DNA from: Escherichia phage PHB12
DNA: 64,000 bases
Strand: one strand, 5' to 3'
Sequence record: MK524178.1
In this document: positions 6,932 through 10,785 of the stretch, piece by piece
How positions within the stretch are numbered: the stretch's first letter is position 1
How the letters are laid out: each line of letters begins with the position of its first letter
The notes under the pieces: model-generated
The model's database searches: none
Seen by the model: the letters and a program-made list of their open reading frames with translations, nothing else
What the model was told of the DNA's origin: nothing
Position numbers and translations under genes: made by a program

Positions 6932-7831
6932 TTATAGACCAGCTAACAGGTCATCGAGGTCGCCATCGTCAGAAGACGAGGAACTCATGAAGTCATCTTC
7001 AGTTTTTGCAGAACTAAAGGCTTCCATGTCTTTATCAAAATCGTCAAGGTCAGAAGCAACTTTATCTGCAACAGAAGCTGCTGCGGCTGCTGCACCACCA
7101 AGAGCGGCAGTACCAAGAACTTGATTAAATTTAGTATTCAATTCTTCAAACGATTTGAACTTATCTTTAGAAGTCATTTCAGAAAGGTCAACCATTTGTT
7201 CGAACAATTCTTTCTGGAAAGATTCATCATCAATGTTTGGAATCGCAGATTGATTCAGGAATTTAGATTCGTCGTAGTTACTAAAACCAGAAACCTGTTT
7301 AACTTTCAGCACAAAGTTAGCACCTTCCCATGGGCAAGTTACATCAACGGGAGTTTCACCCATTTCAGTATCGACTGCAATCATTGCATTGATTTTGTCC
7401 CAAATCTTTTTACCAAAACGGTATTTGAATACTTTACCTTCATTATCTGGAGCTTGTGGGTCTTTAACAACCAGGATATTAGCCCAATAAGAAGTTTTAC
7501 GTTTCAGTTGAGAATATTCTGTTTTGTTTGTATTGTACAGATCATTTTTACTAATGTACTGACATACCGGACAAGAGTCATAATCGCCGTGTGTAGATGA
7601 ACAGGTTTCAATATACCATTTACCGTTTTTCTTGAACCCGTGGTTAACAAGAATTGCAAACGGAAGTGCGTCATCTGTTTTTGCCGGCAGGAAACGAATT
7701 ACCGCTTGACCATTACCGGATGCATCGAGTTTCAGCTTCCATTCACCTTTATCTTCTGAAGAGAAACCTTTGTTACCATTCAGTTTAGCCATCTGAGCTG
7801 CGAGGTCTGCGGTACTTTTACGTTTAAACAT
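6932..7831 (-). CDS. 32: Single-stranded DNA-binding protein gp32
   Basis: 299 aa; [36 protein letters not shown] and acidic C-terminal tail [21 protein letters not shown] match T4 gp32. Confidence 0.95.
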
Positions 7832-7905
7832 TTTATTTGCCTTTATTTAGATTATTAATTAAATTTTACAGTTGGTTGCTACGACACTTATACCTCGTAG
7901 CTGGT
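7832..7905 (-). promoter_or_regulatory. Gene 32 mRNA leader: stem-loop plus A/U-rich tract (candidate gp32 translational operator)
   Basis: Minus strand: hairpin GCUACGA-N10-UCGUAGC (7878-7901) followed by AU-rich UUAAA/UAAA repeats up to the ATG, as described for T4 gene 32 autoregulation. Confidence 0.5.
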
Positions 7906-7911
7906 ATGTTT

Positions 7912-7919
7912 TATTTATA
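7912..7919 (-). promoter_or_regulatory. T4-type late promoter (TATAAATA) upstream of gene 32
   Basis: Minus-strand TATAAATA about 80 nt upstream of gene 32 ATG. Confidence 0.55.
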
Positions 7920-7948
7920 AAGTAATTTTAACACACAAGAAATAAAGC

Positions 7949-8602
7949 TTAATACTTACATGATTTGATTGTTTCTATGAACAATTTCTTAGCAGCATTT
8001 CCATCGATTTGAAGTATTTTTCGATATGCCTTTAATTTGGTAGAATAATTTTGCCAGACTAAGTTATCGGTGAGTTCGTCGTGCTTATCTATAATATTCA
8101 AAAATGAGTCCAACAATAAGAAAGTCTCAAATGAAATTATATTGCTTTGTAGCAATTTGAATATGTAGCTCGACTGAACGTTGTTATTATAATCAAATAT
8201 CTCTTGAAGCGCACTAACTTCAACTTTCTTACTGAAATAGTAGATGTTACGTACGTCTTCAGCAAACGTCTCCTTGGCTTGTTTGAGACGTCCAATATAT
8301 TCCCTATAGAAAACTAATGCATCAGCGTCTGATATCTCACCAATCCATGCGTCTTGGTTAGCAACTAAGTTGCTTATGAATATCAAGGTGAGTTCCTTCA
8401 ATTTATATTTCTCTGCTAGTTTTTCAAAGAAATATTTATCTCGGCGTTTTTGATACGCATTATCCGAAACACGCATGCACCAGTTATATTTGATTACGTC
8501 ATACCGACCACCAAAGTGGTTTTTGCACATCAAGTATAGTTTATATACTGATTTACCGTTAATATAACGTTCTCCGTCAGGAGGCATGCGTATTTTAATC
8601 AT
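7949..8602 (-). CDS. 59: Helicase loader gp59
   Basis: 217 aa; MIKIRMPPDGERYINGKSVYKLYLM; near-identical in length and sequence pattern to T4 gp59. Confidence 0.95.
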   Translation of the reverse strand: MIKIRMPPDGERYINGKSVYKLYLMCKNHFGGRYDVIKYNWCMRVSDNAYQKRRDKYFFEKLAEKYKLKELTLIFISNLVANQDAWIGEISDADALVFYREYIGRLKQAKETFAEDVRNIYYFSKKVEVSALQEIFDYNNNVQSSYIFKLLQSNIISFETFLLLDSFLNIIDKHDELTDNLVWQNYSTKLKAYRKILQIDGNAAKKLFIETIKSCKY

Positions 8603-9278
8603 AGTTCCATCCAGGCCATTTTGAAGATTTAAGTCTATACGTAACTAGAGATGCAGAAATATTAAAAACATCCGAAACTTCTGTGCATGATGAGTATTTT
8701 ATACCATCAATAATTATAGGTTTTTGTTTTTTAATAGTTCTTTCTTTAGAATGCGGCTTTGAATTTGCTATTCTAAGAGCTTCTTTGGTTGAATCAGGCA
8801 TCGGCTTATTCGTTTTTCGCCCTTTTCGGACTTTACTCAAAGCTAATTTATGAGCTTCAGATAGTTTCTTACCCTTATTAGGGGATGGTATTTTTCTTTC
8901 TAATCTGGTTTTAGATACTTTAGCCTTAGTCTCTTCAGATCTAGGTTTACCTAATTTAGAAAGTGAAATAGCCCTTTTAGCTTCATCACTTTGTTTTTTA
9001 CCAGGGCCACCTTTACCACCGGGAACTAAGTTATAAGTATCAGTTCGCAAAACAAAATCTTCATTAACCAATTCTGCTTCTTTTTTATAGGCGTCCTTGT
9101 CATTATCATATTCATAAAGAATTTCGGTATAAAAATTTTTTAGTCCATATTTAGCTTTGGCCGCTAATATAGCGCGGCCTGATCCAATATACCAATCTTT
9201 CTCTTTATGTTTTTTGTGTACGCCTATATAAATTTTACCATTTATTTTATTGGTAGTTTTATACACAACGTATTTCAT
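8595..9278 (-). CDS. Free-standing GIY-YIG homing endonuclease (Seg-like)
   Basis: 227 aa; GIY-YIG module YVVYKTTNKINGKIYIGVH...YIGSG, Lys-rich NUMOD-like linker, C-terminal DNA-binding-like region; ATGA overlap with gene 33 stop; 8-bp overlap with gene 59. Confidence 0.8.
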   Translation of the reverse strand: MKYVVYKTTNKINGKIYIGVHKKHKEKDWYIGSGRAILAAKAKYGLKNFYTEILYEYDNDKDAYKKEAELVNEDFVLRTDTYNLVPGGKGGPGKKQSDEAKRAISLSKLGKPRSEETKAKVSKTRLERKIPSPNKGKKLSEAHKLALSKVRKGRKTNKPMPDSTKEALRIANSKPHSKERTIKKQKPIIIDGIKYSSCTEVSDVFNISASLVTYRLKSSKWPGWNYD

Positions 9279-9613
9279 AATAAGAAATCTAACGTATTAG
9301 TTTTTTCACCACGAGCAACTGATGGGCGAAGCATGTTTTCGTCAATTGCTTCGCTTGTAATTTTTTCAACAATTCCTGTAGGAATAAATTTAGCAAATTG
9401 TGTTTCTGGAATAGAATTTTCTTCCAAGAAAGCAGTTGTTGCTTCTAAATAAGACATACCAAATTGTTCAACCATGGATTCGATAATGAATCCATTTTCT
9501 TGTCGGTCAAGCAATTTAGCGATATCATCTTTATCGTGTTTTACTGCTAATTCTTGTTCAGATAAACCGGCCTCATCAACCGGTTTAATATCACTTAGTG
9601 AAAACTGTGTCAT
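9275..9613 (-). CDS. 33: Late transcription co-activator gp33
   Basis: 112 aa; MTQFSLSDIKPVDEAGLSEQELAVKHDKDDIAKLLDRQENGFIIESMVEQFGMSYLEATTAFLEEN matches T4 gp33. Confidence 0.9.
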   Translation of the reverse strand: MTQFSLSDIKPVDEAGLSEQELAVKHDKDDIAKLLDRQENGFIIESMVEQFGMSYLEATTAFLEENSIPETQFAKFIPTGIVEKITSEAIDENMLRPSVARGEKTNTLDFLL

Positions 9614-9860
9614 AAAGCTCGACTACCTCTTCGTTTTCAGCTTCAAATTGGTCACGAGCGTCTTTATGATAAAGAGCTAACAAACGATTAAACATTTTTC
9701 CATCGACGCCAAGCTCTTCTTTAGCACGAGTACGAATGTCTTTAATCAGTTCATTATAACCAGAAATTTTAAGTTTGTTATCGGAAGCTTCCTTGACTAG
9801 TTTAGCCAGTTCTTCACCATGCACATCTTGATTAAATTCAACTGCTTCTTTCTTAGCCAT
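9591..9860 (-). CDS. dsbA: dsDNA-binding protein DsbA (late transcription)
   Basis: Start at internal ATG giving MAKKEAVEFNQDVHGEELAKLVKEASDNKLKISGYNELIKDIR, 89 aa, T4 DsbA-like. Confidence 0.85.
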   Translation of the reverse strand: MAKKEAVEFNQDVHGEELAKLVKEASDNKLKISGYNELIKDIRTRAKEELGVDGKMFNRLLALYHKDARDQFEAENEEVVELYDTVFTK

Positions 9861-9867
9861 GTTTACC

Positions 9868-10785
9868 TCAGAATTCATTAATTACACTTGTTAATTTAGA
9901 AAGACCAGATTTTACAAAGTATGAATAAATCTTGCCTTTAGGTTGTGGTTGATATGAGTTATAATACTCTATAATGGTTGAAGCAATATTATCAGGGATA
10001 TAATCAAAATCAATGAGAACCAAATTTTCTTGATACCGTTTATATTCTTCTGCACTTAATAATACTTCAGCTTGAGAACGGTCATTGGCAATTGCTTCAA
10101 TAATCGTTGTTTTCATGCTTGGAGTTCGTTCGCCTTCAACTCGAGTAAACCAGAAATCACCACGAACTCGAACAGACGCAACACCGTCTTTACGGTCGCC
10201 TTTAAGAATTTTAGTCATGCAATCAATTTCGGCAGAACCATTCTTAATTTTAACCCATTTTTTCTGTGGTGGCGACCACTGTTTAACGTTAGGATATTTG
10301 TGTAATTGTGTAAAGTCACCATCTGATGCAACAATACACACCTTATGACCAGCTAATGACAAATATTTAGTTAATACACCGATATGGTCATCCGCTTCGT
10401 ACTTGTCAATATCCATTACAACGTATGGCATGTATTTCTTAATCTCATCAACAACTTGACGGAGTGCAGTAAAATATCCTTCCCAATCCCACTTTGAAGC
10501 TTCACGATCAGTTTTACGATTTTTCTTGTAATAGTAAGCAAAGTCACGACGCCAATAACCTGAAGTAGCATTATCCATACACAATACAAATTTTGTATAG
10601 CCTTGCTTACGGAACATCACTACGTTTTTACGAATTGAATTCAAGATTACATGGCGAACCATCGGAACGGTAATTTTATCACCATCTTCAAAGTTGTTTA
10701 ATGCAGCTGCCAATGCAATGTTACTAAAGTCAGCAAGCGCAATACCTTCTTTGTAATCTTCATCCAACATCATTTCTAAATCCAT
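9868..10785 (-). CDS. rnh: RNase H / 5'-3' flap exonuclease
   Basis: 305 aa; MDLEMMLDEDYKEGIALADFSNIALAAALNNF...; FEN-family acidic motifs; T4 synteny next to gene 34. Confidence 0.95.
   Translation of the reverse strand: MDLEMMLDEDYKEGIALADFSNIALAAALNNFEDGDKITVPMVRHVILNSIRKNVVMFRKQGYTKFVLCMDNATSGYWRRDFAYYYKKNRKTDREASKWDWEGYFTALRQVVDEIKKYMPYVVMDIDKYEADDHIGVLTKYLSLAGHKVCIVASDGDFTQLHKYPNVKQWSPPQKKWVKIKNGSAEIDCMTKILKGDRKDGVASVRVRGDFWFTRVEGERTPSMKTTIIEAIANDRSQAEVLLSAEEYKRYQENLVLIDFDYIPDNIASTIIEYYNSYQPQPKGKIYSYFVKSGLSKLTSVINEF

Follow-up and report, generated by a model that had tools for sequence, protein, structure and literature searches.

The ORF found between gene 33 and gene 59 of Escherichia phage PHB12 is in all likelihood a Seg-type GIY-YIG homing endonuclease gene (HEG). 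It lies in a stretch of 64,000 nucleotides (sequence record MK524178.1), here called the window, and the phage from which the window comes is a Mosigvirus (RB69-like). Our overall explanation, to which we give a probability of about 0.7, is that of a free-standing Seg-type HEG of Mosigvirus which homes by means of a cut in the 5' end of gene 59. Identical proteins are already entered in GenBank as 'homing endonuclease' or 'Seg-like', and the gene call itself therefore adds little. What is new here is a clustering of HEG-linked substitutions that recurs in three genera, confined to nt 15-92 of gene 59 and leaving gene 33 free. In the literature searched, we found no paper characterising the HEG and no biochemical or genetic cleavage or homing tests of its protein or of the orthologues.

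The open reading frame and its junctions

The HEG is co-oriented with rnh-dsbA-33-59-32 (Table 1), and the profile search also placed the DsbA gene among its neighbours. The original prediction stated that the HEG ATG overlaps the stop codon of gene 33 (ATGA) and that its 3' end overlaps the gene 59 start by 8 bp, and both overlaps can be read in the sequence. In TTATTATGAAATAC the ATG shares bases with the TGA that ends the upstream ORF, while in GGAACTATGATTAAAATA the HEG stop codon TAA lies inside codons 2-3 of the gene 59 ORF, the stop codon being thus provided by host gene 59 sequence. The identical four bases (ATGA) link gene 33 to gene 59, both of them essential, in the phages with an empty site, and it is exactly into this stop/start overlap that the cassette is inserted. 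T4-like genera show strong conservation of the junction (...ACTAATACNTTAGATTTCTTNTT / ATGATTAAAATNCGCATGCC...). The description of the gene as a free-standing insertion between 33 and 59 also holds, as the empty-site relatives differ by exactly 676 bp and there is no intron; the entire insert is ORF, sited between two genes. No Rfam family was matched at E <= 1 in positions 7700-10000. An intron-encoded endonuclease, the label used in several GenBank records, is ruled out by the lack of an Rfam match and by the insert being pure ORF between genes.

Table 1. Features around the HEG, in positions of the window.
Feature	Position	Strand	Remarks
Gene 59 (helicase loader)	7949..8602	-	Downstream neighbour and probable target gene; T4_Gp59_N 1.9e-49, T4_Gp59_C 6.3e-44
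HEG-linked patch in gene 59	8511..8543	-	nt 60-92, codons 20-31; candidate target or immunity tract
8-nt overlap ATGATTAA	8595..8602	-	Gene 59 start codon and HEG stop codon; sequence GGAACTATGATTAAAATA
HEG ORF	8595..9278	-	ATG start, 227 aa; start and stop codons included; from the six-frame list
I-TevI-type helix-turn-helix DNA-binding domain (C-terminal)	8598..8732	-	Residues 183-227
676-bp segment missing from empty-site relatives	8603..9278	-	Ends ambiguous by a 5-bp direct repeat, TATGA
Lys/Ser-rich linker	8733..9002	-	Residues 93-182; four short NUMOD3-type helices, pattern S-x-E-x-K-x-x-I/V-S
GIY-YIG catalytic domain	9003..9278	-	Residues 1-92; Y6, Y17, G19, Y30, G32, E67, N83, G87/G88 invariant in the family
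ATGA overlap	9275..9278	-	HEG start codon over gene 33 stop codon; sequence TTATTATGAAATAC
Gene 33 (late-transcription co-activator)	9275..9613	-	Upstream neighbour; Pfam Trans_coact 3.5e-26

No Shine-Dalgarno (SD) sequence was found upstream of the HEG start. The last HEG codons, GGATGGAAC, form a purine-rich, SD-like stretch just upstream of the gene 59 start. The nearby TATAAATA sites are found upstream of genes 32 and 34 only, and a late or middle promoter belonging to the HEG was rejected, there being no HEG-specific TATAAATA or strong sigma-70-like site. The HEG is a cassette with no promoter, RBS or stop codon of its own, and in lacking a promoter it agrees with the T4 HEGs that have been classed as 'promoter-less' cassettes (PMC2988022). 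We infer that its translation is coupled to that of gene 33, which fits an ATGA overlap without an SD sequence. For filled as well as empty sites an RNA hairpin is predicted that would sequester the AUG of the HEG or that of gene 59, but it does not stand out from shuffled sequences (z -1.34 and -0.49). As the hairpin is not significant (z = -1.34), it is the overlap that carries the case for translational coupling. Similarly, the start codon of T4 MobE shares bases with the stop codon of the essential gene before it, which has been interpreted as a coupling of translation that restricts the dose of endonuclease (PMC2988022). The overlap is UAAUGA in MobE (nrdA/nrdB) and UUAUGA in the HEG. MobE, however, is of the HNH and not the GIY-YIG family, and does not supply the start context of the downstream gene.

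Protein architecture and known relatives

The protein is 100% identical to that of Shigella phage phi25-307, and the ORF is far beyond chance given its profile matches, 28 near-identical copies in the records of other phages and a dN/dS of 0.11. At the domain level, the N-terminus had been described as canonical GIY-YIG, which is true of the second motif (I-Y-I-G), whereas the first reads V-V-Y and not G-I-Y. The NUMOD-like linker and the C-terminal DNA-binding region proposed at the same time are borne out by Pfam, with a marginal pass for NUMOD3 (3.8e-4, 20.8 bits against a cut-off of 20.4) and a match to I-TevI_DNA-bd (PF20987, 5.7e-11). There was no match to the Pfam GIY-YIG model PF01541, and SegE_GIY-YIG (PF19835) was matched below its cut-off of 25 (2e-4, 22 bits), so membership in the GIY-YIG family rests on profile, structure and TIGR01453 evidence. 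The NCBIfam model TIGR01453 'group I intron endonuclease' gave 75 bits (cut-off 56.05), HEG residues 4-224 aligning to positions 3-210 of 215, and PHROG 314 'homing endonuclease' was matched at 1.2e-55. The AlphaFold2 model (pLDDT 92) has the alpha/beta GIY-YIG fold and was matched by Foldseek to 1MK0 (probability 1.00, TM 0.65), while 1I3J and 1T2T, the DNA-binding domain of I-TevI, are matched in both sequence and fold.

The GIY/YIG tyrosines Y6 and Y17 are on strands E2-10 and E16-23 of the model. Together with G19, E67 and N83 they are invariant in an alignment of 71 homologues. E67 and N83, the equivalents of the metal-binding glutamate and the structural asparagine, are also conserved when the orthologues of four genera are aligned. 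The catalytic residues that the family conserves have thus not been lost; they are present and common to T4 SegE, which is listed as experimentally active (PMC2988022).

Selection appears to have kept the protein. A dN/dS of 0.11, at a pS of 0.10 similar to that of the flanking genes, indicates a maintained protein under purifying selection. Among nine copies only 4 of the 92 residues of the catalytic domain vary, none of them in a motif. One copy, that of AV116, has decayed and is frameshifted, and in four genera the ORF is found intact, with purifying selection acting on it.

The best-known enzyme with the same three-part architecture, also described by TIGR01453, is I-TevI of the T4 td intron (PDB 1LN0 and 1MK0 for the catalytic, 1I3J and 1T2T for the DNA-binding domain). 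Its Y6, Y17, E75 and N90 correspond to Y6, Y17, E67 and N83 of the HEG, and the C-terminal helix-turn-helix (HTH) is alike in sequence (...ISxxLVTYRxKSxKW...). Overall identity, however, is only about 25%, in an alignment for which the full-length I-TevI query was approximate in the middle, the N- and C-terminal parts agreeing with the PDB alignments. I-TevI is intron-encoded and the HEG free-standing between two genes, and unlike I-TevI the HEG has no late promoter of its own. The zinc finger of the I-TevI linker, its distance determinant, is absent from the HEG translation, which contains a single cysteine (C198) and no CxC...CxxC. Also missing are I-TevI residues 27-32, a 6-residue segment including R27, which HMM and MAFFT alignments place outside the HEG, SegD and SegE alike. 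R27 is essential in I-TevI, being the conserved GIY-YIG arginine after the second strand. Basic residue 35 at the start of the first helix (consensus K, here R) is a candidate substitute for it, judging from the alignments.

SegD and SegE are the closest T4 paralogues. SegD (between 23 and 24) is 36% identical over the full length, NUMOD3 repeats included (E 3e-39), and SegE (between inh and uvsW) is 45% identical over a catalytic domain of 91 residues (E 2e-22). All three share the subfamily motif VY..TN.INGK.YIG.H....D.Y.GSG....A..KYG..NF.... SegD and SegE are likewise free-standing and sporadically distributed, the activity of SegD not having been determined (PMC2988022). The HEG differs from both in its insertion site, 33/59, and its target is therefore presumably different. 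In addition, SegE is without the I-TevI-type C-terminal HTH, the HTH of SegD is much weaker than that of the HEG, and SegD is transcribed opposite to its neighbours while the HEG runs in the same direction as 33 and 59.

The T4 enzyme closest in genomic neighbourhood is SegG, at the other junction (59/32). SegG, likewise a free-standing GIY-YIG cassette without a promoter, cleaves its essential neighbour, gene 32, at a distance, co-converts flanking markers and causes marker exclusion of T2 gene 32 (PMC2988022). It had been claimed that T4 carries its nearest Seg endonuclease at another junction, and this is correct, as SegG occupies the space between 59 and 32, and T4 genes 33 and 59 meet in an ATGA overlap with nothing inserted. 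The HEG as a SegG paralogue moved to a new site is ruled out, since BLASTP revealed no similarity (best E 9.7).

Distribution and the linked patch in gene 59

In GenBank phage records the HEG was found in 28 of 170 matching records, which corresponds to 28 of 147-152 Mosigvirus-level records or about one in five; IMG/VR yielded only one close relative. The gene is thus far from universal at 33/59, and 20 of the 22 T4-like loci in IMG/VR are empty at this junction. HEG+ and HEG- states are both found within one species, Mosigvirus mar005p1. Intact orthologues (approximately 57-62% amino acid identity) occupy 33/59 in Dhakavirus (57%), Winklervirus and Karamvirus (phage KMB20, 199 aa), and the orthologues of the four genera share the insertion point and the 4-nt upstream overlap. 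HEG+ Mosigvirus genomes are without SegG, having a 59-32 spacer of only 117 bp, while Dhakavirus IME540 carries both the HEG and a SegG orthologue (58% amino acid identity), the latter at a distance of only about 660 bp, beyond gene 59.

Positions 8543, 8521, 8519, 8512 and 8511 read T, A, C, G and G (gp59 KNHFGG) in all sampled HEG+ genomes, and C, C, A, A and A (KQHFNG, T4-like) in 88 of 119 HEG- records, JS09 and HX01 being examples of this type; the KQHFNG haplotype occurs in none of the 28 HEG+ Mosigvirus records, the records in these counts not being phylogenetically independent. About 31 HEG- Mosigvirus records share the patch of the HEG+ phages, so the patch alone fails to separate HEG+ from HEG-. 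One of these, the HEG- phage G53, shows no difference from the window between -215 and +104 relative to the junction, the insert aside. The Mosigvirus sites closest to the junction (8576, 8558, 8555 and 8549) have no association with the HEG, and those 60-92 nt away are associated. Immunity through a fixed substitution in the flanks was rejected for Mosigvirus, no site with disjoint alleles having been found in 7700-10000 between 10 HEG+ and 9 HEG- genomes.

The two other genera, although the samples are small, show the same side of the junction to be affected. All nine fixed HEG+/HEG- differences of Dhakavirus (two against four genomes) fall at gene 59 nt 15-78, and 22 of the 25 polymorphic gene 59 sites of Winklervirus (two against three genomes) are at nt 28-78, all 22 being fixed between HEG+ and HEG-. 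Gene 33 showed no HEG-linked differences in the Mosigvirus, Dhakavirus and Winklervirus genomes compared, the upstream comparison in the latter two genera covering, without gaps, the last 70-80 nt before the junction, which were inspected directly. The restriction of HEG-linked substitutions, in all three genera, to gene 59 nt 15-92 points to a target or a co-conversion tract there, and a one-sided tract of this kind would be the population-level counterpart of SegG behaviour.

Proposed homing mechanism, alternatives and significance

The mechanism we propose starts with co-transcription of the HEG with rnh-dsbA-33-59 from upstream promoters. Ribosomes terminating at the stop codon of gene 33 would reinitiate on the HEG and make a low level of its product, and gene 59 may in turn be re-initiated from the HEG stop region or from the SD-like GGAUGGAA in the last HEG codons. 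These phages modify the cytosine of their DNA. In a mixed infection the enzyme would cut HEG-less genomes, most probably in the first ~100 bp of gene 59 and approximately 30-90 bp downstream of the HEG insertion point. Recombination with a HEG+ genome would repair the break and copy both the HEG and the 5' stretch of gene 59 up to the cut, a co-conversion that would be seen as localized marker exclusion, and the recoded stretch of the HEG+ allele would guard against re-cleavage. For the marker exclusion foreseen in the original prediction, the HEG-linked tract in gene 59 gives indirect support. As to its parts, it seems somewhat more probable than otherwise that the HEG is active and that it targets the 5' end of gene 59. 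We also lean, if only slightly, towards reading the HEG as a Seg lineage that has yet to be characterised and has a specificity of its own that is new. Its target would be in the first ~100 bp of gene 59, and the lineage would have kept to one junction in at least four Tevenvirinae genera, in each of them carrying along or maintaining a recoded gene 59 allele.

An active enzyme might instead recognize a site spanning the 33/59 junction, in which case the insertion alone would give immunity and the divergence at the 5' end of gene 59 would be donor sequence passively co-converted. The site of I-TevI spans the intron insertion site, and the C-terminal domain of the HEG is I-TevI-like. The conservation of the junction across T4-like genera is typical of a homing site, orthologues in four genera hold exactly the same point, and both G53 and the lack of fixed HEG+/HEG- substitutions in Mosigvirus agree with such a site. 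A break at the junction should, however, co-convert both flanks, and in all three genera the divergence is confined to the gene 59 flank. Moreover, linkage at 60-92 nt and not at the nearest sites in Mosigvirus is the opposite of distance-dependent hitchhiking from a junction break, and we regard a junction-spanning site as possible though rather unlikely.

It is improbable that the HEG is a catalytically dead or domesticated relic, kept because an imprecise deletion would ruin the initiation context of the essential gene 59, or because its DNA-binding domain has taken on a regulatory role. In favour of a relic are the lack of an aligned R27 equivalent, the fact that the HEG provides what directly precedes the gene 59 AUG, and the double role of I-TevI as a transcriptional autorepressor (PDB 1T2T, 'operator site'). 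The HEG is also as diverse as its flanks in pS, which makes it an old resident and not a recent invader. These points are countered by the protein-wide dN/dS and the nearly invariant catalytic domain with its untouched motifs, and by the subfamily motifs, all of which are common to active SegE. Approximately 120 related phages have a perfect ATGA junction and no HEG, which is therefore dispensable, and the recoding of gene 59 on one side only, in each of three genera, is difficult to account for without nuclease activity. Even less probable is passive movement of the cassette, by homologous recombination between co-infecting phages or through breaks made in trans by another endonuclease. Trans-homing is reportedly documented in T4 (PMC2790892). 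The mobilisation of the defunct I-TevIII by MobE is one precedent, and a SegG-type enzyme cutting nearby offers a second model, for which IME540 with its SegG orthologue beyond gene 59 would be suitable. Very high recombination rates of T4-like phages, with which the reticulate pattern of nearby SNPs agrees, point the same way. The HEG+ Mosigvirus genomes, however, contain no SegG, and a passenger would have no need of an ORF kept intact by purifying selection in four genera.

Homing by a cut in the 5' end of gene 59 would add a further Seg insertion site (33/59) and a probable target, gene 59, to the best-studied model of intronless homing. The one-sided gene 59 tract of three genera leads to a concrete prediction of the cut position and of resistant natural alleles, and, if the reading is true, natural genome collections show the co-conversion or immunity footprint of a free-standing HEG without any cross. 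The protein would then also be a compact I-TevI-type nuclease without a zinc finger, usable as a new modular scaffold. The HEG is an extreme case of host integration, taking its start from the upstream stop codon and its stop from downstream codons and rebuilding the downstream initiation region, and it offers a clean system for studying the restraint of endonuclease dosage by translational coupling. Phage-therapy genomics gains from it an explanation of why otherwise near-identical Mosigviruses repeatedly differ in the presence of this gene and in a hypervariable patch of gp59.

Location and expression of the homing endonuclease gene

The homing endonuclease gene (HEG) of the Mosigvirus PHB12 has the gene order rnh-dsbA-33-(HEG)-59-32 around it, with gene 34 divergent, which is the T4 arrangement; DsbA was recognized upstream of gp33 with Pfam. 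The original prediction of a free-standing GIY-YIG HEG stands, and its ORF coordinates and both overlaps proved exact against the ORF list and on sequence inspection. The 5' end reads ...GATTTCTTATTATGAAATAC..., so that the HEG ATG and the gene 33 stop have ATGA in common. The 3' end reads ...TGGAACTATGATTAAAATACGC..., and the HEG TAA thus lies within codons 2-3 of gene 59, with an overlap of 8 nt.

In G53, a HEG-less Mosigvirus used as the empty-site reference, genes 33 and 59 overlap through ATGA, and the sole difference between this junction and that of the window is a precise insert of 676 bp bounded by the direct repeat TATGA. The cassette contains no non-coding bases. The ATGA start context of gene 59 at empty sites now serves the HEG, and the HEG stop codon is provided by gene 59 sequence. 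The final HEG codons (...TGG CCT GGA TGG AAC T) put the purine-rich GGAUGGAA 5-12 nt ahead of the gene 59 AUG. In Dhaka-, Winkler- and Karamviruses the HEG starts with ATGATTAA(A/G), which matches gene 59 over its initial 8-9 nt, and a 9-bp direct repeat therefore flanks the cassette; the Mosigvirus HEG is without the ATT codon (ATGAAATAC) and the repeat is only TATGA.

No Shine-Dalgarno sequence was found before the HEG AUG, and neither a HEG-specific T4-type late promoter nor a convincing sigma-70-like site was detected, the closest TATAAATA boxes belonging to genes 32 and 34. The HEG falls in the "promoter-less cassette with overlapping start" class known for several T4 HEGs, like mobE, which is a precedent for inferred translational coupling (PMC2988022). 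Since the cassette is of this class, the HEG would be transcribed from upstream promoters and translated by termination-reinitiation. In addition, the end of gene 33 (CUCGUGGUGA) is predicted to pair with UUAUUAUGA, downstream AUG included, and this stem is not better than shuffled controls (z -1.3 and -0.5).

Coordinates of the HEG, its neighbors and related features (positions without a locus label are those of the window)
Feature	Position	Strand	Basis or remark
HEG ORF, 227 aa, ATG start	8595..9278	-	Six-frame ORF list
gp33, 112-aa ORF, upstream in transcription direction	9275..9613	-	Pfam Trans_coact, 3.5e-26
gp59, 217-aa ORF, downstream of HEG	7949..8602	-	Pfam, both domains, 1.9e-49 and 6.3e-44
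299-aa ORF, next after gp59	6932..7831		Six-frame ORF list
Extra segment, one more NUMOD3-like helix/repeat	8733-8831 (residues ~150-182)		Orthologue alignment
HEG start repeat	9270-9278; L003:2498-2506 (IME540); L015:1918-1926; L052:898-906 (KMB20)
Predicted stem	9240-9320 and L001:2165-2245	-	Both filled and empty sites
KMB20 orthologue, intact 199-aa ORF	L052:898-1497		ATGA (4-nt) overlap with gene 33, 8-nt overlap with gene 59
AV116 decaying copy, single-T insertion (+1 frameshift) near nt 308	L030:2196-2880		Frame broken
IME540 SegG orthologue	L003:3845-4462

Protein family and catalytic residues

Pfam matches to the HEG protein comprise the I-TevI DNA-binding domain at residues 183-226 (5.7e-11), a NUMOD3 motif barely above the cut-off at residues 93-122 and a SegE-type GIY-YIG match below threshold at residues 5-81. 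NCBIfam TIGR01453 covers the protein end to end (75 bits, cut-off 56), and PHROG 314 matches it at 1.2e-55. A profile made from the 71-sequence family alignment retrieved the I-TevI catalytic domain from PDB (1LN0/1MK0, E about 2e-3), and the AlphaFold2 model has high confidence (pLDDT 92.3). Residues Y6, Y17, G19, Y30, G32, F49, E67, Y82, N83, G87 and G88 are invariant in the alignment. A loss of catalytic residues would have spoken against the original prediction; Y6, Y17, E67 and N83, the counterparts of I-TevI Y6, Y17, E75 and N90, are all kept. The tyrosines, Glu, Asn and fold of a GIY-YIG nuclease are hence present.

The sole hallmark without an aligned counterpart is I-TevI R27, the position of which falls in a six-residue segment missing from the whole subfamily. 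This deletion is also found in T4 SegE, together with all subfamily motifs, and a review of T4 counts SegE among the active homing endonucleases (PMC2988022); the missing R27 therefore appears to be a subfamily trait, not decay. SegE is 45% identical to the HEG protein over the catalytic domain, SegD is its closest full-length T4 relative (36%), and no similarity was detected to SegG, the endonuclease that T4 has in this region. Judged by sequence, the HEG belongs to the SegD/SegE subfamily, not with SegG. The linker consists of four short helices with the pattern S-x-E-x-K-x-x-[IV]-S. I-TevI is located in an intron and has a zinc finger, whereas the HEG has neither: no zinc finger was found in the linker (the entire protein has one Cys), and no group I intron was found at the HEG (no Rfam match). 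By function and structure, it can be classed as an I-TevI-type nuclease with the free-standing lifestyle of the T4 Seg HEGs.

According to the alignment of orthologues, Mosigvirus and Dhakavirus proteins have approximately 33 extra residues compared to those of Winklervirus and Karamvirus, a segment that could alter the spacing between binding and cleavage sites.

Distribution and maintenance

When window 7900-9700 was used as megablast query, matches were found in Shigella phage phi25-307 (99.4%) and many other Mosigvirus (RB69-like Tevenvirinae) genomes. The full query was covered in 28 of the 170 matching records; in the remaining Mosigvirus-level records the alignment takes in 63% of the query, as two pieces that together span 1125 bp, and the HEG is thus missing. 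T4 has an empty 33/59 junction and SegG between genes 59 and 32, in agreement with the original prediction that its Seg gene occupies a different junction. Among 22 IMG/VR T4-like loci retrieved through gp59, the junction is empty in 20, one (a CHI14-like Winklervirus genome) carries the HEG, and in one distant locus no gp33 or HEG match was found. Universal presence at this junction, the other possible objection to a distinct insertion, is refuted by the megablast and IMG/VR counts.

In tblastn the HEG forms a discrete orthologous group, always adjoining gene 33: 28 Mosigvirus records (protein identity 96.5-100%), Dhakavirus IME540, AnYang and LQ5 (57%), Winklervirus CHI14, CBH8, Kc304 and LC53 (50-52%; 62% over shared alignment columns) and Karamvirus KMB20 (47%; 57% in the orthologue alignment). 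Only the C-terminal 132 aa (1099-1497) of the KMB20 copy are annotated in GenBank, as "hypothetical protein". Empty junctions prevail among the relatives in each HEG-bearing genus, with counts of about 45 of 49 (Dhakavirus) and 5 of 10 (Winklervirus) for close records. The next relatives, at 38% or less, are SegD-like genes adjoining capsid genes of other phages. IME540 also has a SegG orthologue between genes 59 and 32 (58% amino acid identity to T4 SegG), which places a different HEG on each side of its gene 59.

The dN/dS calculated from nine intact Mosigvirus copies is 0.11 (pS 0.10), and the corresponding values of gene 59, gene 33 and rnh are 0.04, 0.07 and 0.03 (pS 0.04-0.12); the HEG protein is thus subject to purifying selection, though of a somewhat relaxed kind. 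Its divergence, about equal to that of the neighboring genes, marks the HEG as a long-standing resident of the genus and not as the product of a recent sweep. Variation in the catalytic domain is confined to 4 of its 92 residues, none of them in the motifs. The frameshift of the AV116 copy is in line with the decay that a homing cycle predicts; the 27 other tblastn matches are full length and unbroken.

The 28 copies are named "homing endonuclease", "putative Seg-like homing DNA endonuclease", "group I intron endonuclease", "SegH" or "hypothetical protein" in GenBank. The SegH label derives from 34% similarity to RB3 segH (Shf125875, L034:2196-2879, and other records); this and the intron-encoded label are wrong for the HEG.

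Gene 59 footprint and candidate target

In HEG-carrying Mosigviruses window positions 8543, 8521, 8519, 8512 and 8511 (gene 59 nt 60-92) are invariant, and gp59 reads ...KNHFGG...; the KQHFNG haplotype is the T4-like state. A 123-bp KQHFNG probe matched 88 of 149 records at 99% or more, and a chimeric probe of the HEG 3' end and this haplotype reached at best 95.2% among the 28 HEG-carrying records. The haplotype is present in 0/28 HEG-carrying vs. 88/119 HEG-less records, which are not independent and include RefSeq and GenBank duplicates.

One explanation is a recognition site spanning the junction and disrupted by the insertion itself. It agrees with the absence of any substitution fixed between 10 HEG-carrying and 9 HEG-less Mosigvirus flanks (7700-10000), and with the identical sequence of G53 and the window over 215 bp on the upstream side of the junction and 104 bp on its downstream side. 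However, synonymous sites nearer the junction (8576, 8558, 8555 and 8549) segregate freely among HEG-carrying genomes, which plain hitchhiking from a junction break would not produce. We regard a junction-spanning site as the less likely explanation.

The gene 59 pattern recurs independently in two other genera, both represented by small samples. In Dhakavirus (2 HEG-carrying, 4 HEG-less) all nine fixed differences across genes 33 and 59 lie at gene 59 nt 15-78 and include M25Q. In Winklervirus (2 and 3) the interval nt 28-78 holds 22 of the 25 polymorphic gene 59 sites, each of these 22 being fixed between the two groups, which gives 43% divergence over 51 nt vs. 2 differences in the other 576 nt. 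No HEG-linked change was found at the end of gene 33 in the samples of the three genera.

These comparisons are best read as pointing to the SegF/SegG mode, with a candidate target in the first ~100 bp of gene 59. The enzyme would recognize or cut the HEG-less allele there, the stretch from break to HEG would be obligatorily co-converted, and the recoded 5' stretch of gene 59 in the HEG-carrying allele would be resistant. Roughly 31 HEG-less Mosigvirus records with the HEG-type patch may then be resistant empties, arising by HEG loss or by co-conversion stopping short of the HEG.

Further downstream, the 5' end of gene 32 has two well-separated haplotypes with about 11 linked SNPs (7718-7816). 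They are equally common to HEG-carrying and HEG-less genomes; HEG linkage is therefore already lost ~800 bp away. The 59-32 spacer (7833-7867), directly upstream of gene 32, is indel-rich among Mosigviruses, with an insertion of ~18 nt in 2-3 genomes and small indels. The gene 32 translational operator diverges between T4 and RB69.

No description of an endonuclease at the 33/59 junction was found in a literature search, and the T4 table of a 2010 review lists none there (PMC2988022). The homing-endonuclease identity is already in public records, and the HEG is an uncharacterized gene of a well-known kind, to which population frequencies, orthology across four genera, evidence of selection and the gene 59 footprint are added here beyond the original prediction.
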